Notes under the pieces: generated by a model
Databases searched by the model: none
Told to the model about the DNA's origin: nothing
What the model saw: only the letters and a program-made list of their open reading frames with translations
Position numbers and translations under genes: made by a program
Shown: positions 3,758 to 40,418 of the stretch, one piece after another
Position numbering within the stretch: the stretch's first letter is position 1
Layout: each line of letters starts with the position of its first letter
From: Lama guanicoe
Lineage: Eukaryota
Reading direction: 5' to 3'
DNA: 42,048 nucleotides
NCBI GenBank assembly: GCA_013239625.1
Contig: MU053561.1
Span: 5,940,439 to 5,982,486, forward strand

Positions 3758-5039
3758 TCCCTCCTCAAACCTGGGCTCTCTGCCACCACTTCTAGGAGAA
3801 AAAAAAATGTTCTGGTCTAAAGTGAGATCAGTGGCTTCTCAGGTCACAGACCTCTGCTGGGCTATGCCCCAGGCACAAGCTGGTAACACCAGGTCCCCGA
3901 GCAGGACGGGGCGGGCTCCAGGGCCCGGCAGCCGCGTGGCATCCGCGCCTTTGCCTGGGTGCTGAACCACCACTAGGAGGTTTGCAGGGGGGGCCGTCCT
4001 CAGGCCCATGGGGAAGTCCCCAGTATACAGTCCTGCTGGGTCTGGCTGAGGGAGGTGCCCTCCATGGCCAGCAGCCAGGATCAATCCCTCCTCTTTCAGA
4101 CCTAGAACTCCTTTGGGGGGGGGGGAGTTCAGAGTCCTCATGGTGCGTGGGCTCCCCTCCTTGTTAGTACTAGCCCCAGCCCAGGGGAAGCAGGAACTGC
4201 CCCTCTCCACGGCCCCCTCCACCCTCCACTATATTCCTGGAGAAACACACAGCCACACCCGATAACTTACATACAGTCACTCCCAACACCGCACAAGCCA
4301 ACTGCACACACCTCAGTAAACAACAAACACCCCCACCCGCACGCCCAGGCAGCCCTGACACACAAGCAGGAATTCCTCGGGCCTGAAAGCCGGCTGTGTT
4401 TCCAGTTGCCAGAGGAAACTCACACTGACCTTCTTCAAGGCTGACCACACAAGAAACCTGGACGGGGGGCCAGTCCGTGGGCGGACAGGATGCTATCCCC
4501 GCCCTCCCCTCCCCTTCCTCCCTAAGAAGGCCTCCTCCCGGCTTCCCTCCTTTCTAGCCACTCGCAGGCTGGATGTGGTGAATATGGCAGTGTGGGGCGC
4601 CCTCATGTGGGCGAGAGCGGCCCTGCAGCCCCGCCGCGAGGCTCCGAGGCTGCCCTCCTCCTCCTGCACCGGGGTCACCCTCCTCCCAGAGCCATGGGCC
4701 CCGGGGTCCCAGGATGTCATGGTTGTGCCACCGCCCACGCCCACTACTCCAAATGGCCTGCCTCCTAGCTACCTTCCCTCCTTCTTTCACCTCTGAATAT
4801 TTTCTCACTGATACTTTAAAATGTAATATTTCATGCATTTAAAAGACATTTATCAAAATATTAGTTTTAAAACATCATATGGTTAACACCCATGAGCCCA
4901 CCACCTGACAAGAAAGCTGAAGCAGCAGTAATAACTCGCATCTTCCTTTGTGTTCCTCTTCACCCCACTCCCTACTATATCCCTCAACAAGAGGTAACCA
5001 CTGTTCCCAATTTCATGTTTTCTCTTGCCTTTTCTCCCC

Positions 5040-8000
5040 CAATTTTTCTCAATGTGGTAAAATGAACATAAATTTTACCATGTTAATCATTTTAAAGTGT
5101 ACAGTTCAGTGGTATTAAATACTTTCATAATGTTGTAGAACCATTGCCACCATCCATCTCCACAACTATTTTCATCTTTTAAAACTAAAACTCCACCCAT
5201 TAACAGTAACTCTCCTTTCCCCACTTCCCCCAGACCCAGGCAATCCCAGTTCTACACTCTGTCTCCACGAATCTGACTACTCTAAGTATCTTATACAAGT
5301 GGAATCATGCAATTTTTATCCTTTTCTGACTGGCTTATTTCACTTAGTATAATGCCCTCAAGTTTTATCCATGTTGTAGCATGTGTCAGGATTCCCTTCC
5401 TTTTTAAGGCTGAGTAATATTCCATTGTGTACAGAGTACATTTGCTTATCCATTCATCCATCAGTGGACACGGGCTGCTCCAGTATTTTAGCTACTGTGA
5501 ATAATGCTGTTATCAACATGGGTATACAAATATCTCTTTGAGACCCTGTTATCAATTCTTTAGGGTGTATATCCAGAAGTGGGATTGTTGGATCATGTGG
5601 GAATTCTATTTTTAGTTTTTTGAGGGACCACCATATTGTTTTCCATAGTGGCTTTACCATTTAAAAATACTACCAATTGTGCACAAGGGTTCCAATTTTT
5701 CCACATCCTCACCAACACTTGTTGTTTTCTGGGTTTTTTTTTGATAATAGCCATTCTAATTGATGTGAAGTAGTATTTCATTGTAGTTTTGACTTACACT
5801 TCCCAAGTGATTAGTGATGTTGAGCATCTTTTGATGTGCTTACTGAATATTTGTATATCTTTAGAAAAGTGTCTATTCAAGTTCTTTGTCCATTTTTGAT
5901 TCAGGTGGTTTGTTTTTTGGTTGTTGAATTTTAGTTTTCTATATATTCTGGATAGTAATCCCTTTGCAAATATGATTTGCAAATTTTTTTTTTTCATTCT
6001 GTGGGTTGTTTTTTTGCTTCATTGAGTGTCTTTTGGTGCACAAAATTTTAAAATTCTTTTGAAGTCCAATTTGCCTATTTTTTTCTTTTGTTACCCGCCT
6101 TTGGTGTCATATCCAAGAAATCACTGCTAAATCCAACACTGTGAAGCTTTTCTCCTGTTTTCTTTTAAGAGTTTTATTGTTTAATTCTTGCATTTAGGCC
6201 CCTGATACATTTTGAGGTAGTTTTTGTATATGGTGTTGAGTCCAACTTCATCCTTTTGTATGTGGCTCTCCAGTTTCCCAGCATCATTCACTGAAAAGAT
6301 TGCCCTTTCCCTCATTAGATGATCTTGGCACTCCTGTTAAAAATTGTTGGACCATATATGTGAATTCTGGGCTCTCTATTCCATCGATCTGTATGTATGC
6401 CTTCATGTCAATACCATAGGTTTTTTTTTTAAGGGAGGAATTTTTGGGGGGAGGTTTTTTTTTTTTCAATGGAGGTACTGGGGACTGAACCCAGGACCTC
6501 GTGCATGCTAAGCATGTGTTCTTCCACTGTTATAATGCCCACCCCTCCCCACACACCACAGTTTTGATTGTTGTAGCTTTGTAGTAAGTTTCAAAATCAG
6601 GAAGTATGAATCCTCCAGTTTTGTTCTTTTTCAAGATTGTTTTGGCTATTCAAGATCCCTTGAGATTCCCCTATGTGAATTTTGGGATGGATCATTCTAT
6701 TTCTGCAAAAACCATTATTGGGATTTTGATAGTGATTACACTAAATCTATACATTGCCTTGATTAGTATTGACATTTTAACAGTATTAGGTTTTCTAATC
6801 CATCAACATGGGATGTTTCCATTTATTTATGTCTTCTTTAATGTCTTTGAGCAATGTGTTGTAGTTCTCATTGTATAAATCTCTTACTTCCTTCGTTAAT
6901 TCTTATTTTATTCTTTTTGGTGTTATTGTAAATCAAATTGTTTTTGTAATTTCCTTTCTAGACTGTTAAGTGTTAGTGCACAGAAATACAACTGATTTTT
7001 GTGTTGACTTTGTACCCTGCTAATCTGCTGGATTCATTTATTAGTTCCAATAGGATTTTTTTGGGTGTGGAATCTTTAGAGTTTTCTACATAGAAGATCA
7101 TATCATCTGCAAACAGAGATAATTTTACTTCCTCCTTTCCACTTTGGATGCCTTTTATTTATTTTTCTTGCTTTATTGTTCTGGCTATAACCTCCAGTAC
7201 TATGTTGAATAAAAGTGGTGAAAGCAGTCATCATTCCCTTGTTCCTGATCTTAGAGGAAAAGCAGTGTCTTTCACCATTGAGTATGGTGTTCACTGTGGA
7301 TTTTTTATGTATACATTTTTTATGTTTGGGTAGTTTCCTTCTATTTCAGCTTCTTTTTTTTTTTTTAAACGTGAAAGGGTATTAAATTTTGTCAAGTGCT
7401 TTTTCTTGCATAAATTGAGATAATCATGTGTTTTTCTTCTTACATTCTGTTAATGTGATATATTACACTGAATGATTTTTTTTTCCTATGTTGAACCAAG
7501 CTTGCATTCCAGGAGTAAATCTCACTTGGTCATATGGTATAATCACTTTAATATACAGCCAAATTTGGTTTGCTAGCATTTTGTTGAGGATTTTTGCACC
7601 AATGTACATAAGTGATATTAATCTGTAGTTTTCTTGCAGTGTTTTTGTCTGGCTTTAGTATCAGGGTAATGCTGGCCTCATAGAATAAATTAGAAAGTGT
7701 TCCCTACTCTTTAATCTTTTGGAAAAGTTTGAAAAGGACTGGTCTTAGTTCTTTTTTAAATGTTGGTAGAATTCACCACTGAAGCCATCACATCCAGGGC
7801 TTTTTCTTGTCAGATTTTTGAGCACTGATTCCATTACACAGTGATTCTATTATACAGCTAGCTATAGGTCTACTCGGATTGTCTATTTCTTCATGACTTA
7901 GTCTTGGTCAATTTTGTGTTTCTAGGAATTTTGTGTTTCTAGGAATTCCATTTCATCTAGATTATTCAATTTGTTCATATACAATTATTCTTAATACTAT

Positions 8001-9790
8001 TTTACAATCAGTTTGAGTCTTCTTTTTCTCAGTCAATCTAGCTAAAAATTTGTCAATTTTGTTGATCTTTTCAAAGAACCAGCTTTCGGTTTCATTGATT
8101 TTTTTCCCTACAGTTTTTCTATTCTGTATTTCACTGATCTCTGCTCTAATCTTTGTTATTTCCTTCCTTCTCCTAGCTTTGGCTTTAGTTTATTCTCCTT
8201 TTTGTAGTTCTTTAAGGTGTAAAGTTAGGCTGTTGATTTCAGATTGTTCTTTTTTTTTTTAATGTAGGCATTTATAGCTGTAAATTCCCTTTAGTACCAC
8301 TTTTGCTCATCTCATTGTTTTTTAATGTTGTATTTTCATTTTTATTCATCTCTAAGTATTTTCTAATTTCCCTTGTGATTTCTTCTTTGATTCACTGGTG
8401 TTTTAAATTGTGTTGGTTAATTTCTACCATTTGGTAAATTTTCCAATTTTCCTTATGTTATTGATTTCTAAGTTTATCACACTATGACTGGAAAAGATAG
8501 TTTGCATAACATCTATCCTTTAAAATCTACTAAAACTTAATTTGTGGCCTAGCAAATGGTCTCTCCTGGAAAATGTTCATGTGTATGTGAGAAGAAGATG
8601 TATGCTGTTGTTGTTTGGTAGTGTTCTGCATGTCTGTTAGATCTAGTTATATTATTGTGATGCCCAAGTCCTCTTCTCCTAATTATCTTCTGTCCAGTTG
8701 TTTTATCCATTGTTGAGAGTGGGATACTGACGTGTCCAACTATAATGGTCCAACTTTCTATTTCTCCCTTAAATTCTGTTAGTTTTGGCTTTATAAAATT
8801 TTGCTGGTCTATTATTAGGTATGTGAAAGTTTGTAATTATATATTCTTGCTGTATTGAAACTTTTATTAATATATAATGCATTTCTTTGTATCTTATAAC
8901 CTTTCTCGATTTAAAGTCTATTTTGTCTGCTAATTGTATAGCCACTCCTGCTGTCTTTTGGTTACTATTTGCATGGAATATCTTTTTCCATCCTTTCACT
9001 TTTAATATATGTGTGTCTTTGGCTCTAGAATGAGTCTCTTAAAGATAGCATATAGTTGGACTATGTGTTTTATCCATTCTGCCAATCTGTGTCTTTGACT
9101 GGAGAGTTTAATCCATTTACATTTAAAGTAATTACTGATAAGGAGGGTCTTACTTCTGTCATTTTGCTATTGGTTTTCCATATCCCTTATGACTTTCCCC
9201 CCTTCATTTCCTGCATTACTCTTTTCTCTTGTGTTTAGTTGATTTTTTTTGTAGGGAAATATTTAAAGTCTCTTCTCATTTCCTTTTGTGTATATTCCAT
9301 AGCTATTTTCTTTGTCGTTACTATGGGGGTTACATTTAACATCATAAAGTTATAGTACTCTGATTTGAATTATTACCAGCTTTTAACTTCAAAAATATAC
9401 AAAAACTCTGCTCCTTTATGGCAGCATCATACCCCTTTTGGTTGTTGATGTCACAAATTACATCCTTATGCACTGTATGCTGCAAAACATAAATTAACAA
9501 TACATTTAAATGCATTAGTCTGTTCAATTATGTAGGAAACAAGATTTGGAGTTACAACCAAAATAAAAATAATACTAATATAACAGCTTTTTTTTTTCTT
9601 TAAATGTATAAGTCTCTTAAATCATGTGGGAAACAAAAAGTATAGTTGCAAACCATTGTTACAATATACTACCCTTTATAATTGCCCGTATACTTTTCCT
9701 TTACTGCAATCATTATTTCTCCATATGGCTTCAAGTTACTGTGTAGCATCCTTTCATTTCACTTTGTAGTTAATTTCCTTAATCAATGTT
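5040..9790 (-). mobile_element. Decayed L1 (L1M-type): 3' UTR, most of ORF2 and inter-ORF region
   Basis: Minus-strand peptide fragments match L1 ORF2: endonuclease 'MKGWKKIFHANSNQKTAGVAI...DKIDFK' (8769-8999) and C-terminal 'PLWKTIW..LKKLKIEFPHDPTIPLLDIHPKE' (5454-5660); many stops and frameshifts. Confidence 0.93.
6421..6550 (-). mobile_element. tRNA-derived SINE, camelid Vic-1-like, inserted in the L1
   Basis: Minus strand reads GGGGAGGGG...CAGTGGAAGAACACATGCTTAGCATGCACGAGGTCCTGGGTTCAGTCCCCAGTACCTCC plus an A-rich tail; approximate TSD accatag/accacag. Confidence 0.8.
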
Positions 9791-9974
9791 TTATAGTTCT
9801 CCATGGGCCCTATTCTTGATTTAAACTTTAGACACTGAGGCTCAGAGCAATCCACACAATAAATGACAAATTGGGCAGTCCCAGTAACTACTTTCTTTAT
9901 CTTTCCCTTCATGTATTGTAAGCATCTGCACTTAATGAGAAATAAAGGTAAAAATGATGTAGCCGCTCCCTTAC

Positions 9975-23900: not shown

Positions 23901-26900
23901 CAGGTACAGTGGCCCCAGGCTCTGATAGCACTGAGCCTCTCATGCAAAGTTTCCTGGCTCATAAGAGACTCCTCACCTCCACTAGGAATGATTTGAACAA
24001 GTGTCTTGTGTCCATGTTTCATTTTGGGGACTCTGACAGGACCAGGACTGGCTGAGTGGGAGGACCGAGGGGAAATGCACAGGCTGGAGGTCACAGTGTT
24101 TCAACTGTCTGCTTCCCCCCGATGGATGGTAGCCTTCGGGGCGAGACAGCATCCCCCAGGGTTAAAGCACAGAAAGGAAGCTGTGACTGGGCATAGCTTG
24201 TGGGAGCAGAAAGAGCCCTGGGCTTTGCATCAAAGTGGCCAGACTCCAGCCTGAGTGCTGTCTTTCCTGACTGTGAGCGAGTGATTGGATTTTCCTATTT
24301 CAGTGTCTGTTTCCTCTTGTGTAAAATGGGTCAAATAATCTGTTGATGGTGCTGCAGTGATTAATCTGGGAATGTCAATGAAACAGCTCAGAAAAAGGGA
24401 AGCCCTGCACTTTGTAGGGTTGCATTGGGCACTTAATGTTGTCGAACTTGTGTTGGGAAATTTGTTTTACTGGACCCTTCCCATGGGGAGAACTTCCCTT
24501 GGTAACGCTCAGGGGCCATAGGAAGGTCCCATGATGTGGGCAGATGGAGGCATGTGGGACGGGGTTGTTTCCCTCTTTTAGACAAAGCAGGGGCCGTATG
24601 GGAGAGCGGTAAGGGGTGCAGAGCATGTGTCTAGGGAGAAACTAGTGGCCGGATGGATGAAAGGGTTGTATAGGTTGAGATGGCAGGTGGACACTTGTAC
24701 AGTGATATAGGGAACAGAAGACCATTTCAATGTTCGCCCCTTGTCAGGCAGAGGGGTCATGACGGCCATCCAGCAGTTTGGGGTCACGCTGAATGATGGA
24801 TCAGACATCTGGACCAGGCCAATCACTTAAAGACAGTGCCCTAGAACTTCAGCACCGCACTGACACATACGTAGATATTTATGTCCCTGTGGCCATACAA
24901 CCATTAGGATTGCAGTTGGTGAAGTGGGGAAAAGCTGACTGGATATTTCTGAATTTGTTTGCAGAAATTCATGAAGATGAGGAAGATGAACTAGAAGAAA
25001 CACTCACCCCCAGGTAATCATGAAGTCTTAGGAGCCGGTAATGGGTAGGTAAAGTATGGAGAGGGTAGAAGAAAGATGAACACATGAGGGCGAGAGAGTC
25101 TCATGTACCAGATGTGAGAAAAGAAGACCTGCAGAGTGCATTGATTGACTTCAATCCAAGCAACAGGGAAGGGGCCCTTTAACTTGGCTGTCTGTTGTCT
25201 CTGTGGCACTTGTAGGTATGGCCCAAGGTAATGTACCACCTTTAGGGTTCCCTGCACACACAGAGAGGATATGCATACTGTCCTAAATGAACACCAAGAC
25301 GAGATAAAGAACTGTTTGTACACAGTTCTTAGGTGCTTGTTAGGAAGGAGGATAGCAATGGAATCAGTAAAGAAGTAACTCAAAGAATTAACCACCAATA
25401 GAAGTGTCTAGGAAAAATTTTAGTTGCCACATGACACGACTATGAGAAAGGCTTTAGAGGAATTCTGTTCATAAATATAAGACATAATGTCTCTGAGGCT
25501 CTACAGTACCTTAACGCTTATACTCACTTGGCTACATTAACTTAAACTGCATATGATAGAGGCACATGGCAGTAGCACGTGCTGTGGCAGTTCACTGGTG
25601 CTTCATGATCATGAAAGGACCACACTGGGATGTTTGGGTCTCATTTCTCATCCCATGTCAAGTGGCCAGTGTACCGAACAACTACGGCTCTCTCCCTCCC
25701 CCTCCCCCTGACAGCCTCACTCTGCTTCACATACAGAAGGAAACTTACTTCCCTCTTTATGAGGACTGATAAGTTTGCATTTCATGAATAGTTCCTATGC
25801 CCTGCAGCAAAATCAGTACCGACTACATGGTGACAGATGCTGATAGTTGAATTTTCTGTCATTCCTTTCCCACCTGGAACAGCATTGAGCAAGAGGAGTT
25901 GGAGGAGGAGTTGCTCCAAGAGTGCCAGGATGAATGTGTTTTGAATCCCTCAGTTCTCCAAGAAGGATCTGACTGCAACCGGCTAGACGGTGAAGGCAAC
26001 TTGCCAATTGATGAAGAGAAAGTCGGCCGTGCTCTGCATGTAGCTGGTGCTTGCTCCCATGTTGCAGAAGATCAAATTCCAGCTGACCTCCCAGGTATCC
26101 TTTCTAGTTTTGTTCCCCACAAACTGTCAAGACTGAAGAAGGTCTTCACCAAAGGTCGACCTTAGTGACACATATTGGTTTACCCAGAGAAAAGGATGGA
26201 CTGTGAAACACGGATATCATATGTACCAGGGAGCCTTGATCCCTTTCTAGGCCCACTTCATGTATCTGTCACCCTGGATGCAAAATCAGGCCATGGGACC
26301 GAAATCAGGGGTGAGAACCTGTCACCCACCTTGGGTGCACATCCACAGGAAGAGTGTGTCAGAGATAGATTGGGTCAACTGTGTCTTCCAAGCTACTGTG
26401 GTCTAATTATTCTTTTTGGACAGTGGCCCTGGCCTATCTTGGCCTGTCCACACACACTGGTAGCTTTGCCTATATGTTAGGTGAAGTGGTGTCTCTGGTT
26501 TCACTGATCTCCGCTGAAGTCTTCACCTACGTGGTGATGCTTTATCTTAGCTATGTAGCCATCAGAATGCCAGGAAAGAACCAAGTGTCCCTTTACCTTG
26601 CTTGGATGTTCTCATTTAGTAAGGCTGGGCTCTGACATTCCCTCCAGCCTTGAATGCCCATTGTTTCTGTGTAGCCCCAAATTTTCTCTTTGATATGAAT
26701 GTTTGTAGCATTCATCTAGTCTCAAGCAGAGTTCCTCCATAGCATCAGCAACCACATAATCTGATGGGACAAACCAATATTGTAGAAAGAATTCTAGAAG
26801 CAACTCAGCTGGTTTCTAAGACCTTTTGTGAAAATATACTATTAACTCGAAANNNNNNNNNNNNNNNNNNNNNNNNNNNNNNNNNNNNNNNNNNNNNNNN

Positions 26901-29900
26901 NNNNNNNNNNNNNNNNNNNNNNNNNNNNNNNNNNNNNNNNNNNNNNNNNNNNNNNNNNNNNNNNNNNNNNNNNNNNNNNNNNNNNNNNNNNNNNNNNNNN
27001 NNNNNNNNNNNNNNNNNNNNNNNNNNNNNNNNNNNNNNNNNNNNNNNNNNNNNNNNNNNNNNNNNNNNNNNNNNNNNNNNNNNNNNNNNNNNNNNNNNNN
27101 NNNNNNNNNNNNNNNNNNNNNNNNNNNNNNNNNNNNNNNNNNNNNNNNNNNNNNNNNNNNNNNNNNNNNNNNNNNNNNNNNNNNNNNNNNNNNNNNNNNN
27201 NNNNNNNNNNNNNNNNNNNNNNNNNNNNNNNNNNNNNNNNNNNNNNNNNNNNNNNNNNNNNNNNNNNNNNNNNNNNNNNNNNNNNNNNNNNNNNNNNNNN
27301 NNNNNNNNNNNNNNNNNNNNNNNNTCAGTATGGTTATGAATATTTGACTGCAAGTGAAGAAAGCAGGAAAAAAATCAAAATTATATCAAAATATTGAGAT
27401 AATACTCCTTGAAGTTAGAAGTTATGTGTCTGTAATTTCCCCAAAAGCTCTTTTTGCTTAGACACTGCCTGTGTAGTTCAATGCAATGTATGCAAACAGT
27501 GGGAGCCAAGATTTTAGTGCTGTGTGATTGCTGAGCGTCATGCCTGGAGCACACAGAGAGAGTCCAAGTGCCCCTTGAACAGCTGGTTGCATGGCCAGTG
27601 CTCGGAGCACCTGCTGCTGTCTCCCTCTCCCACCCCGTGGTGGCCACACAGTGCTTGACACATAGGAGGATAGTTATTTACCTCTTTAAGGGGATTGCCC
27701 TTTGGCTTTCTGTGTCCAATCCCAACGCCTCCCCTATCAAAACCAGCTAGGACAGCTTGGTGTCTGATCCTCTTAGATTAATTTTCTATCATCCCCTTTC
27801 CACCTGGCACAGCATGGAGCTCGAGGCGTTTGAGAAGGAGGATGTGCTCCAAGAGTCCCAGGATGAATGTGTTTTGAATCCCTCAGTTCTCCAAGAAGGA
27901 CCTGACTGCAACCAGCTAGACAGTGAAGGCAACTTGCCATTTGATGAAGAGAAAGTCAGCCATGCTACGGATGTAGCTGGTGCTTACTCCCATGTTGCAG
28001 AAGATCAAATTCCTACTGACCTCCCAGGTAGCCTTTGTAGTTTTGTTCCCCACACACTGTCTAGACTAAAGAAGGTCTTCACCGAAGGTCGACCTTAGTG
28101 ACATATATTGGTTCAATCCAGAGAAAAGGATGGATTGTGAAACACAGACATCATTTGGGCCAGGGAGCCTTGATCCTTTTCTAGGCCCACTTCATGTATC
28201 TGTCACCCTGGATGCAAAGTCAGGCCATGGGACCAAAATCAGGGGTGAGAACCTGTCACCCACCTTGGGTGGACATCCACAGGAAGAGTCTGTCAGAGAT
28301 AGTTTGGGTCAACTGTGTCTTCCAAGCTACTGTGGTCTAATTATTCTTTTTGGACAGTGGCCCTGGCCTATCTTGGCCTGTCCACACACACTGGTAGCTT
28401 TGCCTATATGTTAGGTGAAGTGGTGTCTCTGGTTTCACTGATCTCCGCTGAAGTCTTCATCTACGTGATGATGCTTAATCTTAGCTATGTAGCCGTCAGA
28501 AAGTCAGGAAAGAACCAAGTGTCCCTTTACCTTGCTTGGATGTTCTCATGTAGTAAGGCTGGGCTCTGACATTCCCTCCAGCCTTGAATGCCCATTGTTT
28601 CTGTGTAGCCCCAAATTTTCTCTTTGATATGAACGTTTGTAGCATTCATCTAGTCTCAAGCAGAGTTCCTCCATAGCATCAGCAACCACATAATCTGATG
28701 GGACAAACCAATATTGTAGAAAGAATTCTAGAAGCAACTCAGCTGGTTTCTTAGATCTTTTGGAAAATATACTATTAACTCGAAATATTCAGCAGATGGG
28801 ATATTAGGAGAAAGCTCAAGCAGATCAGCCAGAGAATTTCCCCCAAGCACTTGGAAGCAGTCCTGTCTAATTCTCCTAAGACTTAAGTGTTCTGAAATAC
28901 TTTTCCTAAAATATTCTGTTGTTTCCCTGAGAATATTAATGTCCTTTTGGTACCTGTGTTCAGTGAGTTGGCGTGTGTGAGGTATGATTTGTTTATTGTG
29001 ACCTGCTGTCTCTGAATTTCTTACCAGAAAATCAGAACGAGTGTGACGAAGCAGCTGGACAAGAGCCAGTGTCTGCCAGGTAATTCTGAAGATTTCCGGG
29101 CTGTTCATGTCAGTGGTGACACCAAAAGACCTCAGATGTGGGAAAAGAGAACGTGCTGAACATGACTCTTTCATCCATTCACTCAACAGCCAACTAGGCA
29201 CCTGAAAAATGTTGTTTCTTTCCATTGTGTCAGTTGTGTGTGTCTGAATTTTTGAATGTCTCAAGTTTAGTCCTGGACCTTAATTTGACCACGGTGCACT
29301 AGCCAGACTTGGGGGTCCCTTAGTCAGCTGCTGCCCCCTCTGTGGATAAAGGCAGTGAAAGATGCACATATGTTTTGAGCCAGTTTGGCCTCAGTATGGT
29401 GATGAGTATTTGACTGCAAGTGAGGAAACATAAAAAAAAAAATCAAAATTGTATCAAAATATTGAGATAATACTCCTTGAAGTTAGAAGTTACATGTCTG
29501 TAATTCCTCCAAAAGCTGTATTTGCTTGAGCACTGTCTGTATTTTTTAACGCAAAGTATGCATAATGTGGGAGCCAAGATTTTAGTCGTCTGTGTTTGCT
29601 GGCCGTCATGCCTGGAGCACACAGGGAGAGTCCAAGTGCCCCTTGAACTGCTGGTTGCATGGTCAGTGCTCGGAGCACCGGCTGCTCTCTCCCTCTCCCA
29701 CCCCACGGTGGCCACACTGTGCATGACACATAGGAGAATAGTTATTTCCCTCTTTAAGGGGACTGCCCCCTGGCTTTTTGTGAACCGTATCTCTGCTTTA
29801 CATCAATATGCTGACTCTGTCTCTAATCGTCTGAGTTTAATTTCCTGTCATCCCTTTCCCACCTGGCACAGCATGGATCTACTGGAGGTTCAGAATGACG

Positions 29901-32900
29901 ACGTGCTCCAGGAGTCCCAGGATGAATGTGTTTTGGCGCCTTCCATTCACCAGGAAGGTTCTGACTGCTATGAGAAGTACAGTGATGGAAAGTTTGCATT
30001 TCCTGAAGAGAAAGTGATATGTGCTCTGGAGGTAGCCTGTGGTTCCTCGCATGTTAAAGCAGATGAAATTGGAGCTGACTTCCCAGGTAGTCTGCATGAT
30101 CTTTGCTCCGCACAATCTGTCTTGTCTCGGAGAATTCCCTTTCATGTGTAGACTATATGCATAAATATTGTTTTGAATCAGGCCCAACAATTCCCTTTAT
30201 TTAATTACTTATTTACTTATTTATTTGCAGTATAGTCAGTTTACAATGTGTCAGTTTTTGGGTTACAGCATAATATTTCAGTCCTACATCTATATACGTA
30301 TATTCCCTTTTACATTCTTTTCCATTGTCGGTTACTACAAGATACTTAAAGTAGTTCCCAGTCCTGTATAGAAGAAATTTGTTGTTTTTCTTTTATATAC
30401 ATAATAGTTAATATTTGCACATCTCAAATTCCCAATTTATCCCTTCCCAACCCCTTTGTCTCCAATAACCATAGTTTCTTTCCTATGTCTGTGAGTTTCT
30501 CTCTGTTTTGTAGAGAACTTCATTAGTGTCTTCTTTCTTTTTTAGATCCCACACGTGCGTGATATCATGTGTTCCTTCTCTTTCTCTTTCTGGCTTACTT
30601 CACTTAGAATGACCATCTCCAGATTCATCCTTGTTGCTGCAAATGGCCCTAATTTTATTCTTTTGTATGGCTCAGTAGTATTCCATTGTATAAATATACC
30701 AGTTTCTTTATCCAGCCATCTGTGGATAGACATTAAGGTTGTTTCCATGTCTTGGCTATTGTATACAGCGCTGCTATTAACATTGGGGTGCGTATGTCTT
30801 TTCAAATTAGACTTCCCTCTGGATGTATGCCCAGGAGTGAGATTCCTGGATCATATGGTAAGTCTCTTTTTCGTTTTTTGAGGAATATCCATACTTTTGT
30901 CTGTAATGTCTGCACCAACTACATGCCCAGCAATAGTGTAGGAGGGTTCCCATTACTCCACACCCTTTCCAGCATTTAGGGTTTATGAACTTTTAATAAA
31001 CTCCATTCTGACTGATGTGAGGTGATACCTCATTGTAATTTTGATTTGCATTCCTCTGGTAGTTAGCAGTATTCAGCATTTTTTCATGTACCTATTGGCC
31101 ATTTGTGTGCCTTCCGTGAAGAATTCCTTTTTAGGTCCTGTGGCCATGTTTGGTTTTTTCTTGTTGTTGTTATTAAGCTGTATATGCTGTTTATATAGTC
31201 TGGAAATAAACCTTTGTCAACTGTATCATGTGCAAATATTTTCTCCCATTCTGTAAGTTGTTGTTTTGTTTTGCTGATGGTTCCCTTTGCTGTGTAAAAA
31301 GCTTTTAAGTTTAATTACATCCCATTTGTTAACTTTTGCTTTTATTTCTATTGCCTGAGTAGACTGCCCCAGGAGAACATTGCTAAGATTTATGTCAAAA
31401 ATGTTTCAGCTATGTTTTCTTCTCGGAGGTTTATCGTGTCTTGTCATATATCTAAGTGATTAAGCCATTGTGAGTTTATTTTTGTTTATAGTGTGATGGA
31501 GTGTCCTCACTTCATTGCTGTATGTGTGGCTGTCCAGTTTCCCCAACACCACTTGCTGAAGAGCCTGTCTTTTCTCCATTGTATGTTCTTGCCTTCTTTG
31601 TTGAAGATGAAGTGACTGTAATTCTGTGGGTTTACTTCTGGGCTCTCTATTCTGTTCCATACAATTACCTTTAAAGTAACACATTCCCTGAGTTCGTAAA
31701 CTTGGCTCAATTCCTAGGCATGTTTGTCGCACTGGCAAATCACTGGACCCATCACGGTCCTGCCAGACTCCCATATAGCTCTCCAATTGTGTCATAGGAA
31801 GTAGCTTTCCGGTCTCCTAATTTTGAATGAATCTCTTATCTTGCATTTAATGCTCTAATTTTCATTCCTAAGCAATGTGCCTGAGATTCTATACCTGTCT
31901 GAGGCTGTTGACAGTTTAGTTTATGTCTTTGGAGATGTCACTCCTTTGGTTGTTTCTGTCAACGCAAGTCTGTCTCCTTCCATTTGTCTTATCTTATCCA
32001 GAGGCTTCTGAAACCAGAACAGAAGCACCAATGCCATCTTTGGTGTGTTTCTCTGAAGCAAGGCAGGGTCCTGGAACACCCAGCCTTATGAATGCCCACT
32101 CTTTCTTGGTGGCACTGAAGAGTGTTTAGACTATGTTTAGATTCTGCTCATCAGTCTAATGTCAATGGAGAATGCATCTACCCTAATAAGAGACAGCATT
32201 TCAGATTGAAAAATCCTGAATATTTGAGCAGCTTTCTAGGAGGTAGCTCGGCAGTCCCTCAGGATCTGTGGGTAAAAGGATGAGGTTACTGTTTGCCTAG
32301 ACTCAGGACATAGTGTGCGGACATCCTGTCATATTATGAAGACATGTCTAGGGTCTCAAGAAGCAAATCCAGTGCCTTCTTATGAGGTTCTATCTACGGC
32401 CTCCTGGAAGATTTCTCCCACAGTACCCTGTTATCACATTGCACACATTGCCAAAGTGCTGATTTTGGCATGGTTTTGCTCATACGTAAATGAGTTTTGC
32501 CCAGTGTGACTGTCCTCTTAATTCATTTACAGAAAACCAAAATGATCAAGATGGGTTGAAAGGAGCAGAGCCAGTTATCTGCAGGTAATTTTGAATATTT
32601 GGTCACTGTTGATGAAATGTGACTTCTGCAGTCCCCTAATCCAGGAAACAGCAGGAATGCAAGCGTATGATCCACTTTGCCAACCAGGAGTATCTTTTTG
32701 GTGATGTTTTCTGCTTACATTTTGATACATATATTGTTTCCTATTTCTCATTAACTTCTCAAGTGTACACCCAATTCAGTTGACCAGGTGATCTATGATA
32801 CAGTGATTTCTGTGCACTCATTTGTTCTCTCTGGTGTCATTTACAGAGTGAGATGCAAATCTGCTTTCGGCCTGTTTTGTCTTAGCATGTTGACATGTGT

Positions 32901-35900
32901 TTCATAGCAAGAAGTGGACACAAACAGTGATATAATAATATCATGCCACCATAAAGAGAGAAAGAGGCCTTAGCGGCATGAGATCTCTGGGACACTAGGG
33001 TGCCCCCAGTAGTATACACTTAATCTCCATGTAGCAGTCAGTGCACCTTAAATGAAAGGGTGAAAACCACTCTTACATGAGTCTATGTTATGGGTCATGA
33101 CTGCAGTATAGAGATAATCAGTCTCTTTCTTCATCAGCTGTTATTTGGCCAGAGCACTGAGCACCCCCTCTCCTTTCTGTCTCCTGCTCCTCAAAAACAC
33201 ACACTCTGTCTCACCAAAAAAGTCAGTTTTTTCTGCTTAAAGGATCACCCTTTGGCTTCCTTCACTGCTCCCTTAAACAGTTCATCTATGCTGAACACTG
33301 GAATTTGACACAACACTGTAAAATGATTATGAATCAATAAAAAATTTTAAAAAAAAAAAGAAACAGTTCATCTAAAGCAGATAGGACTCTAGATTTCTGA
33401 TTGGTATTAGGTTAATCTTCGGTCTCCCTACCCGCCAGGCTCAGCACAGAGCTGCCGCAGATAGTAGAGGATGACATCCCACGGCACTCAGTGGAGGAGT
33501 ACTATTTGACTTACTTAGCTCTTCCTGACCTGTCAGACTCCTTCTGGCCTTATAGGAGCGCCGCCATCTACTCATTTGAGGGATTGGAACTCTCTTATGC
33601 TCGGGATGTAACCAGTGAGTACTCTCTTATCGATGTGATAAACCTCCAACTGCACTGCCAGGTAGAGCTGGTGTCTTTTGCGCTTCACACCTCTGGCGGT
33701 GCCGAGCTATGGCGTCCCTGTGGGCAGACCCTATACATTTATATTGAGAAGGTTTAGGTTCTAGAATTCAGTTTTAAGCACAGACATCATGCGGGCCAGG
33801 GAACTGTGCTCTCTATCCCAGGTCAAGCCTATGTGTTGGGTCCCAAGATAGGTCACTGAACCGAAGGCAAGTGTGACAATGTCACTCACCTCTGTGCAGT
33901 TGTACAGAGGTGTCTTTTTTCATGATTCCCATCAAATGTCTTTTCTACTTATAAGGTTCTCATGTTCATACCCCTAAAATATCCCTGGAATTTCTTTCCT
34001 TCAAAAGATGTTGACAGTGTTAACTACACCTCTGGATTTGTTGTTTCCCTGGGGTCACTGCTGTCATCCCCAGTGTCCGTCTCCTCTAAGTGGAGGAGCC
34101 ACCTGAACACCAGGACACAAACATCCCTACTATCACCTTGCATGTATCTTTCCATGAAGTGCGGCTGACCCCAGCATTTCCCCACTCCATGAAGGGCTGA
34201 TGGTTCTGTTTAGCACAAAGCTCATTTTCATGCTAGGGTTTGTAGATTCCAACCATTATTTTGTTTTCAGTGTATAAAGTCTGCTAAACCAGCCAGCATA
34301 CGGTGAGGGAAGGCTGAATATTACAGTATTCTTTTTAGAATGCAGATGGGCTATTCCACAGACTATGTGGGGAAAAGATACATTTCACTCCTGACTCAGA
34401 CCTGGAAAAGGTGATTGTTGTGAGGAGATACTGCCCAGGGGTCAAGAAAGCAAACCCAGGCAGGTCCAGAAGACGCAACGTGAGGTCTCCAGGGAATATT
34501 ATTCTTACAGTATCCTCCTGTGCCACTGGTGATACTTTTTTCCCCGGGATAGTATTGGATACCTAACTATTGACATATGTAGGGGGATCTGCTTAATGTT
34601 TCTTGCCCTGTCTGAATTGATCCATAGAAAATCATCCTGTTGTTGAGGAAGAAGAGGAACAAGACCATATATATTCCAGGTAATTCTGAAGACTCAGGGG
34701 TCTTTTGTTTTCTTTCTGCTATCTATCTGTCTGTCTGTCTATCTATCTATCTGTCTATCTATCTGTCATCTATTTATTTATGTATTTCAAAGTATAGTCA
34801 GTTTACAATGTTGTGTCAATTTCTGGTCTACAGCATAATGAAGAATCATGGCTCTTAATTTAATGTTGATGTATGGTGAGGTCAGATCCAGGGAAATGAG
34901 AAACTGCTGAATATGCCTAATTCTTCCATTCAGACAACCACAGTGTGTCCCTTTAACAATGCTGTCTATGTTAACTGTACGTTTATAAGCCCCTTTGATA
35001 ATCTCTCTCCAATGGAGTAACTGCATTCAGTTGATGCAGGGGTGCTAACCTGTCCGGGATTTCTCGGACTCTCCTTCTCTGTTTTTATTATAAGCAGCAT
35101 AGGATGCATTTCTGCCTTTCACTCTTTGTTCTTAGCACTGACAAGTATTTCATAACAAGAAAACTACTTAGAAAACCAAAATTCATATCACATCTCAGTG
35201 GTAGAGAAAAGGCATTGGAGACACAGGATTATGCTGCCAGAGTCTTGTTCCCTCAGCTGTTGCATGTAAATTTCAACAAAACTCATGCAAGAGTTGAAGC
35301 CTCCCTTGTAGTTTCTGAGTGTGTGTCCTGACTAATGTGTACTGAGGTGGTTCCGTCTCCTTCGTCCTGAGCTCTTTTTCTGGTCAGTGCTGGGACCACC
35401 TCCTGCTCTGTCTGTCTCCTATTTCCATTGTAAGCACACTCTGGCCCCAGATGGAGGAAGATTGTTATATCTCGCTTTGTGGAGAATGTCCATTTGTTTT
35501 CTGCGACCAGTCCCTTAACACTCCCATCAAACCCAGCTAGGACCCTGTGTTCGCTCATCCGTTTTGTTTAATCCTCAGTGCACCTGACCCCAGAAGGCTC
35601 AGTAGTGAGCAGCCGGTGGTAGAAGAGAATGAAGGCCCACAGGACTCACTGGATGAATGTTATTTGACCAGTTCGGTTGGCCATGACCTGTCAGACTCCT
35701 GTAGGCCTGACAGAGGTGCCTCATTCCCATGGGACCAACAGGGAGTCTTCTCAGCGCTTGCTGTAGATGGTGAGTACTCCCCCGAATAGAGCACACGGCT
35801 CCTAGTGGGTCCCCAGTTATCCTCACAGACTTTGTAGCCAATGAACTGTATACACTACGAGAGTGATTTCTGTAAACAGGCCCTGAGACTTGTGTTCTTT

Positions 35901-38900
35901 TGAATCAGGCTGTGGGATTTAATTTGCAAAAGGCATCATGTGGGTAAGACAACTTTCCTTTCTCCTCATCCCAGGACGCCCTGTGACACCTGGACCGCCC
36001 GCACCAGTGCAGGCTGTTGGTATCAAGTCAGGCTAGAGAGGGGAAGTGAGATGTGTGGGATGTGGCCCGGCCCTGCCAGGCCATCATTCAGCATGGGCAG
36101 GACAGGCCAACCTCCCCACACGGATGGGCTGAGGTGAATGAACGGGACACATCAATGATCCTCGGGTCCCTCCTATTTCTGGGCTCTGATCATGACTTGT
36201 GAACAGTGTGGACAGCTGTGACTCCAGCAGTAGGGCTGCAGGGGACCTGCTCTTTTGCCCCATCCGCCCTGACCAGGGAGAAGTACTGTAGGCACAGCAC
36301 AAGCACTTGATCTTTAAGGACAACTTCAGATTTCATTGGAGGCTTTTCCCTACTTTCCTAAGTAATGCTATTGGGCATTCCTTGTGATGTTTGATAAACT
36401 ATTTTGCCTTTTCCCATGCAAATGCAGAGAATATTGAGCATAGTTTAATAAAAGCCATTAGTTGGGAAAAGAGAGATAAAACTAAATGATGAAATTAAGA
36501 TGTGATATTTTAAAATACTTTAAGTCTGTGATTCAAAATAGCCTTTGAGGGTGGGTTTACTGGTTTTGTTCATTGTTTCACAGAGTAAAGTTTTTAATTT
36601 CAGAGGTGTTACCCTTCAGACCATGTGAATTATCAATAAATCTTATTAAGTATCCTAAAATGCAGTGATTAATGATGAAGAAACTCTGCCTGCAGGAAAT
36701 GGGAAGGGCACACGAGGCTGAGAGCAGTGCTTAGGGAAAAAGCCCAGGAAGCTCTACAAGGCGCAGGTGCAGGGCTGGGGTCAGGAGGGGCAGCCTGCGT
36801 CCAGGGAGGATTTGTTCAAGGGGGTTGTGGGAAGTGATGCTGCTGAAGAAAGAGGGGCCGGAGGGAGCAGGAGTGTCAAGGCAAGGTGAGGATTTGAGTT
36901 CATGTAGGGAGGTTGAGGAGGACAAGTTTCCCCAAGCTGAGTAAGACTGGTGAGACCGCTGCTAGTGTGGAGAGACAGGATCAGCGGAAGCCTTTAGAAG
37001 GAGGTCGGATGAATCACTGATGAGAGTGAGACAGAGTGCGCTCTCTGGAAGACGACGCGGTCACAGACACAGGAGAGACACGTTTAAGAAACAGTTCAAC
37101 AAAGTTTGTTGAGCAGGAGGGTCTCCAGGGGGTAGTGAGGGGGGAGCCACACAGCAATGTGCAGCAGGCCCCGTGGGCCGTGACCCCACCTGAGCCTGAC
37201 CTGGACTGGATGAGCTACTTGAGCTCTTTGGTTAGCCCACTCTCTGAGAATATGAACTCACTTCACAGTAGAATTGTAAACATGGGTGATTAGGAGCAGT
37301 GCCTGGTGCCCCTGGAGGGGGGTGTAATATAAGGAATGTGCACTGTGTCATCTCCCTGAAGAACCAGACATCCTGATTCTGTAGCCCTTCTGGACACTGA
37401 GCTTCCAGCAAGGCCCTCAGACCTCAGCTACACTACTTACAGGTGCCAGTACCCACCAGCCCACCCAGGACACATGTAGCCATGGGACGTATCCCTGTGT
37501 GGTGGGTGGACGGGCTGTAAAAACACACGGGGAAGGGAGTTGAAAAGGCTCCAGAAGTGGGAAGAGTTCTCATAACTTGGTCCATGTGCTATAGCCCCCA
37601 AGTCCCATTTCTAGTGGAATTTGCAGCCTTTGGGCCCTACTTCTCTTGTTATATCTTTATTCTAATTAGACATCAACAATTCCTCGTCCTCCCTTCCCTG
37701 GGTCCTGGCCAGAACCTTGTCTCTAGGCTACAGGGAAGGGTCGCTAATAACTGAGTCATGGTCGTGACCTCACCTGCCATCCAGTACCCTCTGGACCCAA
37801 GTGGGTGATTTTTGATCTCAGCGACGTTGCTGCCAGGCACCTGCCATCTCAGCGTCCCCAGGCACAGCCTTCAAAATGACATCTCCGTCATGCCCATGAT
37901 GTCTGCCTCTGTTGTCTGGCTGATTGGGTGGTCTCCCTGATAGGCAGGAACAGCAGAAATGGGTGTCGTGGGAGGGGCTGACAAAGGGAAAGTTGCATTG
38001 GTCCTACTGAACTGTCCTCTCCTTTCAGCTGACTCCTGGGAGGACCGTCCCCAAGGGCCTCTGAGTTTCCAAGGGTCAGAGATGCAAGCTTCACAAGCAC
38101 ACCTGCAGACAAGCTCCCAGGTGACCCATCACCTGCAGCTGCAGCAGGACCAGCAGTTTGACTGTGGTGACGGCATCGTCAGGCTCGGCCTTCCCTCCAC
38201 CGTGTGGGGCTGCACAGCCAACACTGAGTTTGGAGACCAAGGGCTGCCCCTGCAAGGTAAGAAAGAAACGGGGAGTAGGAAGCTCTAGTCCATGAGCTGG
38301 TTGTGCCAGAGCTGGGGGTTGAGGAAACAGTGGGGCCTCTGCCATGCTCCTTTCAGGTCCACTCGAAATCCCCAACGCTCTAACAGAGGGAAGTGAGCAA
38401 GAGCCGCAGATTTAGGGCCAGCTCTGCCCCAGGTCCTGGGTTTGCAAATTCCTGGTTCTTTAACAGAACCAGGTTATTTATCTTGTGAGGTATTCCCTTC
38501 TCGTTTCCCTTATCTGACCACAGGGAAGTTAAATCTACCTTCCGTGGTTGTTGGGAGTGTTAAGAAACATAGTTCCCAGGGTCCGTGATTCGGTAAAACC
38601 TGCGTCAGCACACCTGTGACTGTGTGATGTCTACCCGTGTATCTTGCTGGTGATGTAACACTTACACAATGATTGCACGTGCATTGTCTCAGCTGAAGTG
38701 CAGGAATTTTGATGGTCTCCACTTTCTCTAGACCCTGTCTTCCCTTGCTTTCTCAGAATGGCACGCTTGCCAGAGTTCTCTTCTCCTCACCCATCCTCAA
38801 GCCAGTTTTCCCCCGTTACGTGCTCTCAGTGCGTTAGTAATGTTTAGTAGCAGTGTGAAAACTGCCCACACACTTCAATGTCCTGTTGACTTTTCACATG

Positions 38901-40418
38901 GAGGTAATTTTTCTGTTTTTAGCCCTTTATTTAAAATAAAGAACCACCTTCATAGATAAGGTGAGCCACTCAGTTTCTTCTATGATGCTCCATTTAATTC
39001 GTCCTCTCCGCTCATCTCCATGGCCATCTCCTCGGTTTTCTTATCATGATCCGACTCTTCTCTGATTTTCTTCAATGAGCTTTCATACCCTCACATGCAT
39101 TTCATCTGGGACGTATTCATCCTTACCCTCTACTGCTCTCAGTATCTTCACCTGGAGACTGGGGCCGCGTGGTGCCCATCTGTCAGGCGATCGCCTCATC
39201 TAAGAAATGAGGATAGCGGAGGTGAGAGAAGAAGGGTCACCACTGGCCACTGAGCAGAGATCCCATGGGAAGTGCTCAGCGGGTGTTAGGGATGCGTGGC
39301 CCTGACAAGTGCCATTAGCCCTTGTGGTATTTCATTGTCTTGCCTTCCCTCTAGTCTCTTTTTCTTGACCTTGGCTTCCCACATTCTTGGCCAGGACTCA
39401 GCCCCACTGGCTAGTCACTCTCTCTCCTGCACACTTACCCCAGAGGCCTGAGTCTGAATCCAGGCATCACGACAGATTTTGCTGCAAACGCTAGTTTTAA
39501 TGCCCTTTTTTCTCATAATCCCCCGGATCTAATCGTTCATGTTACCACCAGAGCTTCCCTCGCTTATTCTTCTTATCTCTGTTTTTCCTTTGTCAATTTC
39601 AACTCATCAGAGGCTGTTAGAATGATCCATTCAATATCTCAACGCCATCATCCATTGCTTCCCTTGTACACACACACACTTGTGAGTGTTGTATTTTTAT
39701 CACAGCTTCCATGTCTTATTTAGCTTGGGTATGATAAACATTATCTATAGTGTATGTACAAATATATGGGAAGCATATACTGATACACATATGTAAAAAT
39801 TTCCAGTTTGAGACTTCCCCAGTTCTTTCTTTCCTGAGGTTTTCTTTCAACATTGACTTTTCTTACGTTCTGCAGTCCCTTCTGTCCCAATAGTACAGCC
39901 TCTGACTGCCCTGATTGCCTTGCCTTGTCTTTTCTACCTAGGAACTTTGTGTTTTCGTCAATTCTATTTTCCTTAAAGTTTTTTGGCAATGTGAACATGT
40001 TTGCCTCCTGGCAGTCTTACCAGCACTGCACAGTTTGGGGACGGTCAACAAAACAGAAGAATACCGAGGTGTCTCCACTGGCTTCACCTGGCAGGGACGT
40101 TCAGATGGCCTCTCTTGTTCCTGGGCACTTTCCTTAATTGATGTTCCACTTGGCTGGAGGAGTAATTCATTGTCTGATCATGAATAACAATGCATCCTGT
40201 TTTCTGTGGTTTTATCTTTAGAGCTGGGTTTGGATGCTTCCATCGGAATGAAGAGCCCCCCCAAGGTGGAGGGTGAGGGCTCAGCTGCCAGCCAGCATGA
40301 GTGTCAAGTCTCTAGCAACAGTAATGCCTCCAGTGTCCTGAAACAGAAGGTTCTGCGAAGAAAACTGCTGCGCAGCAAGTGGAGAATAGCATGCAGGTTC
40401 CCTGGCCTTCAAGCGTAG
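20756..40418 (+). CDS. NBPF: NBPF4/NBPF6-like neuroblastoma breakpoint family protein, 15 coding exons (one inferred in the gap), about 731 aa, five Olduvai (DUF1220) domains
   Basis: All visible exons have AG/GT sites, matching phases and no stops; exon lengths plus a 52-nt exon in the gap sum to 2196 nt. Confidence 0.92.
22912..23041 (+). CDS. NBPF: NBPF exon 2: KCEEYKDIIESVLGEKLQFRVVKLAEQLAEKLAEKPALADERFR
   Basis: cag/gtaagg, 130 nt, phase 1-2; matches NBPF YEECKDLIK..L...QF...KLAEQL. Confidence 0.92.
23689..23903 (+). CDS. NBPF: NBPF exon 3: EYDTLIRSQARELTQLRQKLRDGREDSVLLIQQLRDVLTHNDLDNNPGQGFREQLTKGRRLAERLARKLSP
   Basis: 215 nt, phase 2-1; NBPF/PDE4DIP coiled-coil exon. Confidence 0.93.
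24965..25013 (+). CDS. NBPF: NBPF acidic small exon: EIHEDEEDELEETLTP
   Basis: 49 nt, cag/gtaatc, phase 1-2. Confidence 0.88.
25883..26094 (+). CDS. NBPF: Olduvai long exon A (CON1-like): IEQEELEEELLQECQDECVLNPS...DQIPADLP
   Basis: 212 nt, phase 2-1, QE..DEC motif. Confidence 0.9.
26853..27324. other. Assembly gap (472 N)
   Basis: Run of n inside the tandem repeat. Confidence 1.
27813..28027 (+). CDS. NBPF: Olduvai long exon B (CON1-like): MELEAFEKEDVLQESQDECVLNPS...DQIPTDLP
   Basis: 215 nt, phase 2-1; paralog of exon A. Confidence 0.9.
29028..29079 (+). CDS. NBPF: Olduvai small exon: ENQNECDEAAGQEPVSA
   Basis: 52 nt (the usual NBPF small-exon size), cag/gtaatt. Confidence 0.88.
29872..30086 (+). 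CDS. NBPF: Olduvai long exon C (CON1-like): MDLLEVQNDDVLQESQDECVLAPS...DEIGADFP
   Basis: 215 nt, phase 2-1. Confidence 0.9.
30200..31660 (-). mobile_element. 5'-truncated L1 (ORF2 C-terminus plus 3' UTR) in an NBPF intron
   Basis: ORF2-like 'WNRIESPEVNP..YSHFIFNK..KNIQWRKDRLFSKWCW'; 13-bp TSD acaattcccttta (30187-30199) / acaattaccttta (31661-31673). Confidence 0.92.
32533..32584 (+). CDS. NBPF: Olduvai small exon: ENQNDQDGLKGAEPVIC
   Basis: 52 nt, cag/gtaatt. Confidence 0.88.
33289..33360 (+). mobile_element. 72-bp L1 3'-end micro-insertion
   Basis: L1 terminus plus aataaa and poly(A); perfect 14-bp TSD aaacagttcatcta (33275-33288 and 33361-33374). Confidence 0.88.
33439..33614 (+). CDS. 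NBPF: Olduvai long exon D: RLSTELPQIVEDDIPRHSVEEYYLTYLALPDLSDSFWPYRSAAIYSFEGLELSYARDVT
   Basis: 176 nt, cag/gtgagt; RLS.EL...L.DS..PYRSA motif of Olduvai exons. Confidence 0.9.
34628..34679 (+). CDS. NBPF: Olduvai small exon: KNHPVVEEEEEQDHIYS
   Basis: 52 nt, tag/gtaatt. Confidence 0.88.
34705..34838 (-). mobile_element. L1 3'-end micro-insertion whose tail became a (TCTR)n microsatellite
   Basis: ATCT/GTCT repeats at ~34719-34772 next to an L1 terminus; 18-bp TSD tgaagactcaggggtctt (34687-34704) / tgaagaatcatggctctt (34839-34856) with 3 mismatches. Confidence 0.8.
35597..35769 (+). CDS. NBPF: Olduvai long exon E: RLSSEQPVVEENEGPQDSLDECYLTSSVGHDLSDSCRPDRGASFPWDQQGVFSALAVD
   Basis: 173 nt (176 with the upstream CAG acceptor); QDSLDECY motif; gtgagt donor. 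Confidence 0.92.
38029..38256 (+). CDS. NBPF: NBPF4/6-type penultimate exon: ADSWEDRPQGPLSFQGSEMQASQAHLQ...GDQGLPLQ
   Basis: 228 nt, phase 1-1; resembles the recalled NBPF4/6 'SEIQASQAQLEPST...LQLDQGFHCGNG' region. Confidence 0.85.
40222..40418 (+). CDS. NBPF: NBPF4/6-type last coding exon: ELGLDASIGMKSPPKVEGE...KVLRRKLLRSKWRIACRFPGLQA*
   Basis: tag acceptor, phase fits; resembles NBPF4/6 'ELVLEPSLGMKNPPQLE...RRRLPFSKWRLAFRFAG'. Confidence 0.87.

Follow-up and report, generated by a model that had tools for sequence, protein, structure and literature searches.

Introduction

The exon doublets that encode Olduvai domains, and the clades into which these domains fall, are described in PMC9313022 and PMC13028154, the available part of the latter containing no camel or alpaca (here and below, citations refer to parts of each source). 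In humans, the HLS1-2-3 triplet has been hyperamplified (PMC3429928; PMC9313022; bioRxiv 2021.07.06.450945), and a G-quadruplex (G4) motif and a furin site in the expanded small exon have been tied to that expansion. For non-primates, O'Bleness 2012 (PMC3429928) gives one to four domains per gene and one to eight per genome, in a survey that did not include camelids, while Keeney 2014 (PMC4067907) and bioRxiv 2021.07.06.450945 speak of '1-9 copies' and of large increases in anthropoids only. Here we analyze 42,048 nucleotides (nt) of Lama guanicoe DNA (assembly GCA_013239625.1, contig MU053561.1, positions 5,940,439 to 5,982,486, forward strand; hereafter the window). Judged by homology, the locus in the window is an NBPF4/6-like gene of a South American camelid, since its best homolog is an alpaca NBPF4-like protein and it differs from the alpaca reference proteins by few residues.

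An earlier note on this DNA had proposed that three long Olduvai exons of the gene, called A, B and C, were all products of a camelid amplification of one CON1-like doublet. We consider it probable instead that A and C are an old pair and that only B is new in the window, having arisen by unequal crossing-over on that pair, with a further unit (B'), homogenisation and whole-gene duplication following later and the gain being tolerated. Our search for literature pairing 'NBPF' with 'camelid', or otherwise concerned with camelid NBPF genes, returned nothing (subscription journals and preprint supplements lay outside it), and targeted searches for work on non-primate NBPF expansion likewise returned nothing.

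Results

A tandem array with a hybrid middle unit

The three long exons (212-215 nt) have AG/GT ends, share one open phase and each match the Olduvai model PF06758, with E-values of 2.8e-4 for A, 8.3e-8 for B and 6.2e-10 for C (exon A alone scores just under the curated cut-off). A self-BLAST of the window recovered the array at E=0, far beyond chance; Tandem Repeats Finder, with a longest period of 500, did not detect it in the window. The tandem period of ~2.06 kb given in the earlier note holds from B to C (2,059 nt), whereas B follows A at 1,930 nt in the assembly, across a gap of 472 N; filling this gap like the B-C spacer (605 nt) would bring the distance to 2,063 nt. The close likeness of A and B and of their downstream introns was confirmed: the exons are identical at 193/212 positions (91%) and the introns at 726/757 (96%), the first 137 nt of the intron being 89% identical and the other 620 nt 97.4%. 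Exon C is 74-75% identical to A and to B, and the likeness of the intron that follows it fades within ~100 nt.

On its upstream side, unit B has a different affinity, which was absent from the earlier note. The upstream intron of B is closer to that of C (413/475, 87%) than to that of A (318/456, 70%), while the upstream introns of A and C are 71% identical and the synonymous divergence (dS) between exons A and C is 0.37. Of the sites that distinguish A from C, those to the left of position 27,717 are C-type in B at 146 and A-type at 15, and those to the right of it are A-type at 102 and C-type at 24 (of 126), a pattern that was reached in 0 of 10,000 permutations. By hand count, the segment from 27,718 to 27,857 is mixed (21 A-type and 17 C-type sites), and is followed by 19 nt without any difference among A, B and C, beyond which 81 of 88 sites in B are A-type. 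Unit B is a hybrid that joins a C-type upstream region to an A-type exon, which suggests unequal crossing-over between misaligned A and C units as its origin.

Ancestry of the long units

Two long units followed by short ones are found in predicted proteins of cow, sheep, wapiti, musk deer, pig, warthog, dolphin, white rhino, grey seal and arctic fox, and the same layout is present in a divergent camel paralog. The NBPF4-type protein of the proboscis monkey likewise has two long spacings (87 and 92 amino acids, aa).

We compared the units in three trees. Tree 1 was built from 25 proteins hand-picked at one or two per taxon; tree 2 omitted the short units, the truncated second seal unit, the first fox unit and the truncated primate second domains; and tree 3 omitted rabbit, beaver, ferret and near-duplicate rows. 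In all three trees, the A, B and B' units of alpaca and Bactrian camel formed a starred clade (98/83 to 98/86 in trees 1 and 2) with the divergent camel paralog's first unit as its sister. Unit C grouped with the second unit of that paralog, and with the second long units of other artiodactyls at 95/85 in tree 1 and, without cow, at 92/90 in tree 3; tree 2 leaves this grouping open. The approximately unbiased (AU) test rejected the grouping of A, B, B' and C as one clade (p=0.011). The derivation of all three exons from one unit is thus not supported for C, which groups apart from A and B, the outcome that the earlier note had named as telling against it, and in trees 1 and 3 falls with the artiodactyl second units. 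Since B-type units are present in alpaca and in Bactrian camel, the gain of B would predate the split of the two, dated to 11-25 million years ago (PMC13751797).

Copy number in camelids

All four full-length alpaca reference paralogs have the order A-B-B'-C-D-E, where D and E are short units, and two more paralogs are truncated at the 5′ end. The window has three long units and lacks B'. In predicted proteins, Bactrian camel models contain zero to two B-type units and dromedary models none; models were grouped into genes by accession and isoform labels, and some of the shorter forms are splice isoforms. In one Bactrian camel protein (P0011), the order is A-B-B-D-E without C, a possible reciprocal or later crossover product. 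In dromedary, myomegalin (PDE4DIP; P0224-P0229) and NBPF paralogs (P0005, P0008, P0009) are listed on a record of the same size, 80,509,706 bases, which is consistent with the local-duplication origin described in PMC3429928. In two DNA runs, the spacer close to the small exon at 29,028 had a contig depth 3.5-4.7x higher than the region 5′ of A; we did not use this figure, because contig depth is not copy number.

Splicing, protein properties and substitution rates

In two RNA runs from a relative diverged by ~6%, labelled reproductive system, assembled contigs ran from exon 3 into the first small exon, from a small exon into B and into C, and from A into a small exon; in one of the runs, contigs also ran from B into a small exon. 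Such contigs report exon joins, not level or strand. The gene is expressed, and these joins show its splicing in a related animal.

Each unit adds 89 residues in frame. The repeat region has an isoelectric point of 4.05 and contains 27% Asp+Glu, and AlphaFold (20-row alignment) gave the repeats no fold, with a predicted local distance difference test (pLDDT) score of ~30 against a model mean of 36.8. Olduvai domains have been reported to be disordered (bioRxiv 2021.07.06.450945). The likeliest reading is that the added units lengthen an acidic, probably disordered linker and are tolerated. The non-synonymous divergence (dN) between A and B, 0.098, equals that of the flanking intron (p=0.26). 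The changes between A and B comprise 13 non-synonymous and one synonymous (dN/dS 4.0, p=0.20); positive selection between A and B was dropped as evidence, because this ratio rests on the single synonymous change.

Relation to the primate classes

The long units are CON1-like by position and length, that is, in architecture as read from sequence. Unit A is the first Olduvai domain after the coiled coil, as in CON1; B derives from A, and C is the second ancestral unit. All three are long doublets with a C-terminal extension, a feature read from retrieved primate protein sequences: their spacing is 88-91 aa, compared with 86-87 in primate first domains and 73-75 in short ones. The second domain of the primate NBPF4-type protein is also long (92 aa).

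The trees did not extend this likeness to descent. The laurasiatherian long units formed a clade of their own (100/99 in trees 1 and 3, 98/98 in tree 2) that joined CON1 at 38/2 in tree 3, and groupings with NBPF4 domain 2 (p=0.51), HLS/CON3 (p=0.27) or CON2 (p=0.13) were not rejected. A to C are 24-29% identical to CON1 (24-28% on the core), no higher than to other classes. With the extension included, B, the first units of cow and dolphin and both rhino units scored best against CON1, A was near-tied and C scored best elsewhere; the dolphin and rhino units evolve more slowly. After three trees and four clade tests, we did not retain the assignment to CON1 by tree, and the earlier label stands for architecture only.

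Olduvai gains in other non-primate mammals

In predicted proteins from chromosome-scale assemblies, six alpaca genes hold at least 30 full domains. A sheep hybrid assembly holds at least 23 domains in six loci, and three other sheep or argali assemblies at least 10, 15 and 21. Internal repeats of at least 70% identity were present in 15 of the 26 proteins checked, which are gene models and were not checked on DNA: they include proteins of alpaca, Bactrian camel, horse (three identical units), donkey (four units), black rhino (two units), fox (two units), musk deer (two proteins), sheep (three proteins), goat (two proteins), squirrel monkey and human. No such repeats were found in the cow, pig, warthog, dolphin, wapiti, seal and white rhino proteins or in that of the divergent camel paralog. 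The camelid gain is therefore not unique among mammals, but one of several small gains outside primates, and it is convergent in the weak sense that similar gains occur in predicted proteins of several other non-primate mammals.

Single-unit Olduvai tandems that are 95-100% identical were observed in horse (three units), donkey (four) and musk deer (six) (P0064, P0110 and P0022). A block of 165 residues and two domains occurs 2-3.5x at 86-100% identity in sheep, goat and musk deer models (P0017, P0021, P0025, P0032, P0033 and P0055); this ruminant block forms a higher-order repeat that recalls the human HLS triplet. A beaver protein (P0159) is of NBPF type, with three Olduvai domains and a C-terminal segment that recurs in tandem as about ten near-identical copies, and contrasts with the loss of NBPF in rodents inferred in PMC3429928.

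Gene model and neighborhood

The coding model comprises 14 exons on the plus strand, from 20756 to 40418 (Table 1). It shows the features of the NBPF family: Olduvai domains outside PDE4DIP, with closest homologs named NBPF4-like; doublets of small and large exons, the small ones measuring 49, 52, 52 and 52 nt before A, C, D and E; and an N-terminal coiled coil, with helices at residues 11-172 (pLDDT ~50-75) in the AlphaFold model of the closest alpaca protein. PF06758 matched five of the nine exons scanned (A to E), and the remaining four had no match. Exon C has its best homolog in an alpaca NBPF4-like protein (99%), with Camelus proteins (78-92%) next. Compared exon by exon, the model has 5-12 differences in 701 residues from the four full-length alpaca reference proteins and 55 from Bactrian camel. 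The frame is open from B to the stop (453 codons, terminal stop only), and likewise from the ATG to A. The small exon of doublet A is 3 nt shorter than in the four sequencing runs compared and in the reference proteins, with the frame intact, and the small exon expected at the gap before B is present in the reference proteins. Counted from its innermost acceptor, exon E measures 173 nt.

Table 1. Features of the NBPF4/6-like gene in the window
Feature	Position	Strand	Remarks
Coding exon 1 (ATG), coiled-coil region	20756..20933	+	Identical to four alpaca reference paralogs
Coding exon 2, coiled-coil region	22912..23041	+	
Coding exon 3, coiled-coil region	23689..23903	+	No Pfam match; joined to the next small exon in RNA contigs
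Small exon, doublet A (49 nt)	24965..25013	+	
Long Olduvai exon A (212 nt), probable first long unit of ancestral pair	25883..26094	+	Pfam, trees
Post-A intron up to gap	26095..26852	+	96% identical to post-B intron
Assembly gap, 472 N	26853..27324	.	Homology predicts 605 nt including small exon of doublet B
C-type spacer 5′ of B	27325..27717	+	146/161 informative sites match C
Putative crossover zone of hybrid unit	27718..27876	+	Mixed sites (21 A-type, 17 C-type), then 19 nt identical in A/B/C; hand count
Long Olduvai exon B (215 nt), probable camelid-specific extra unit, A-type body	27813..28027	+	
Small exon, doublet C (52 nt)	29028..29079	+	Joined to exon C in RNA contigs
Long Olduvai exon C (215 nt), probable second long unit of ancestral pair	29872..30086	+	
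Small exon, doublet D (52 nt)	32533..32584	+	
Short-type Olduvai exon D (176 nt)	33439..33614	+	
Small exon, doublet E (52 nt)	34628..34679	+	
Short-type Olduvai exon E	35579..35769	+	Three in-frame acceptors (35579, 35594, 35597), the first being the one implied by reference proteins
Penultimate coding exon	38029..38256	+	
Last coding exon with stop codon	40222..40418	+	

A tRNA-Gln(CTG) gene lies on the minus strand at 13224-13295, in a GC-rich island ~7.5 kb 5′ of the ATG; human 1q21 NBPF clusters have tRNA genes nearby. Related interspersed repeat copies, 74-92% identical, were found at 14950-15501, 30200-30740 and 34771-34839. The copy that follows exon C has very high depth in the sequencing runs and ends the likeness of the C intron to the A and B introns. 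By eye, AT-rich, T-skewed stretches at ~5000-9800 and 30200-31650 resemble minus-strand LINE-1 fragments.

Discussion

These data are probably best explained by a camelid gain made on an older pair of units. The ancestral gene would have consisted of a coiled coil, two long Olduvai doublets (A and C), two short ones (D and E) and a tail. Misalignment of A with C in a camelid ancestor may then have led to an unequal crossover near the acceptor of the long exon, which would have duplicated ~2.06 kb and joined a C-type spacer to an A-type exon in B. A second round would then have produced the B' found in most reference paralogs, later exchange would have homogenised the intron cores, and the whole gene would have been duplicated several times besides. 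Rather than an adaptation, the gain would be a by-product of an exon-doublet array prone to recombination, and one that was tolerated.

Several observations weigh against this account. Divergence differs by segment (13.4% in the B/C spacer, 9-11% in the A/B exon and intron start, 2.6% in the A/B intron core; p=9e-5), and therefore points to more than one event or to an assembly consensus. The layouts were compared in hand-picked predicted proteins, and the pair of long units seen in ten other laurasiatherian species has exceptions, with one long unit in some ruminant paralogs and other layouts in horse, black rhino, ferret and badger proteins. The tree alignments span only 56-71 columns, and the first long units of camelids, pigs and ruminants form no single supported clade in the three trees. 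The excess of non-synonymous over synonymous changes between A and B means that selection may act on them. The test did not reject a clade uniting every long unit of camelids, those of the divergent paralog among them (p=0.33), and the long pairs of rhino and carnivores group within species or order, so that such pairs may have been homogenised or re-made and their positional orthology is no proof of descent. These last two points, together with the equal exon lengths and the regular period, would also fit the earlier proposal that A, B and C were all amplified from one CON1-like unit inside the camelid lineage. We regard that proposal as very improbable, given that A, B, B' and C of the expanded paralogs were rejected as a clade, that A and C differ as widely as their dS and upstream introns indicate, that two long units stand at the same position in those ten laurasiatherian species, and that C clusters with the pig and dolphin second units in trees 1 and 3. 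What survives of the proposal is a camelid gain of single long doublets, independent of the human HLS triplet and amounting to one unit in the window and two in the reference paralogs and made on A and C as the probable ancestral pair.

A separate doubt concerns copy number rather than the existence of B. Because all four full-length alpaca reference paralogs have B' and the window does not, the assembly may be collapsed, either from a four-unit gene or from near-identical paralogs, and the real chromosome would then read A-B-B'-C. The N gap lies inside the array, the window is identical to no single reference paralog, and two DNA runs each contained not only a contig that matches exactly but also one that differs by ~9% over 27681-27873; the latter agrees with neither A nor C and may represent B'. 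On the other side, the stretch from B to C is contiguous and free of gaps, and Bactrian models with three long units exist, some of them labelled isoform X1, which makes three-unit genes or alleles plausible; between a three-unit allele or paralog and a collapse, we see the chances as about even. Selection for Olduvai dosage or for a longer linker, and with it true functional convergence with primates, seems unlikely to have driven the gain. It would be in keeping with the intact frame and splice sites in alpaca and Bactrian camel, the whole-gene duplication on top of the domain gain, the transcripts in runs from the reproductive system and the 13:1 ratio of non-synonymous to synonymous changes. 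Against it stand a dN that equals the intron rate, unit numbers that differ among predicted paralogs and isoforms, annotated truncated paralogs and the lack of a known phenotype, as well as the lack, unlike bonobo and human, of the motifs of the human expansion: no G4 pattern occurs in 24901-30200 (the gap being unseen), and no furin site (R-x-K/R-R) in the alpaca, Bactrian camel and cow proteins, the bonobo and human controls being positive.

Taken alone, the locus records a modest event, one or two extra domains that are already in the reference protein annotation. Across species, we lean towards the view that Olduvai amplification is not confined to anthropoids: camelids and sheep, with 23-30 or more domains, would overlap monkeys (25-40) and lie far above the range of 1-9, each lineage having amplified its own unit, the long doublet in camelids, the short doublet in equids and the two-domain block in ruminants. 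If true, this would weaken the anthropoid-only premise of the hypothesis linking Olduvai dosage to brain size and provide independent contrasts; confirmation of the high non-primate counts on DNA would thus make that hypothesis testable outside primates, and would make instability look intrinsic to the exon-doublet array.

Among known systems, the gene most resembles human NBPF4/NBPF6, the 'non-primate type' of O'Bleness 2012 (PMC3429928), in its coiled-coil exons, doublets of small and large exons, and tail; cow and gorilla NBPF4 have four domains each. It differs from published non-primate genes, with their one to four domains, in having five in the window and six in the reference paralogs, with at least six paralogs in alpaca. 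With primate CON1, which numbers one to three per gene (PMC3429928, Table S1), it shares the N-terminal position and the long doublet (88-89 aa against 86-87, and 75 in HLS), but the repeat of human NBPF1 is 271 aa long and includes the coiled coil, whereas the camelid repeat is the 89-aa doublet alone. Like the human HLS1-2-3 hyperamplification, the camelid event added Olduvai doublets in tandem within a gene, with non-allelic homologous recombination as a plausible route. The HLS block, by contrast, is a three-domain triplet of 4.7 kb, present as 7-48 domains at 96-100% identity, whereas the camelid unit is a single doublet of ~2.06 kb with one or two extra copies at 91% nucleotide and 71-88% amino acid identity. 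With the other non-primate tandems, it shares a lineage-specific, in-frame Olduvai gain, although the units are different and those tandems are mostly younger (88-100% identical).

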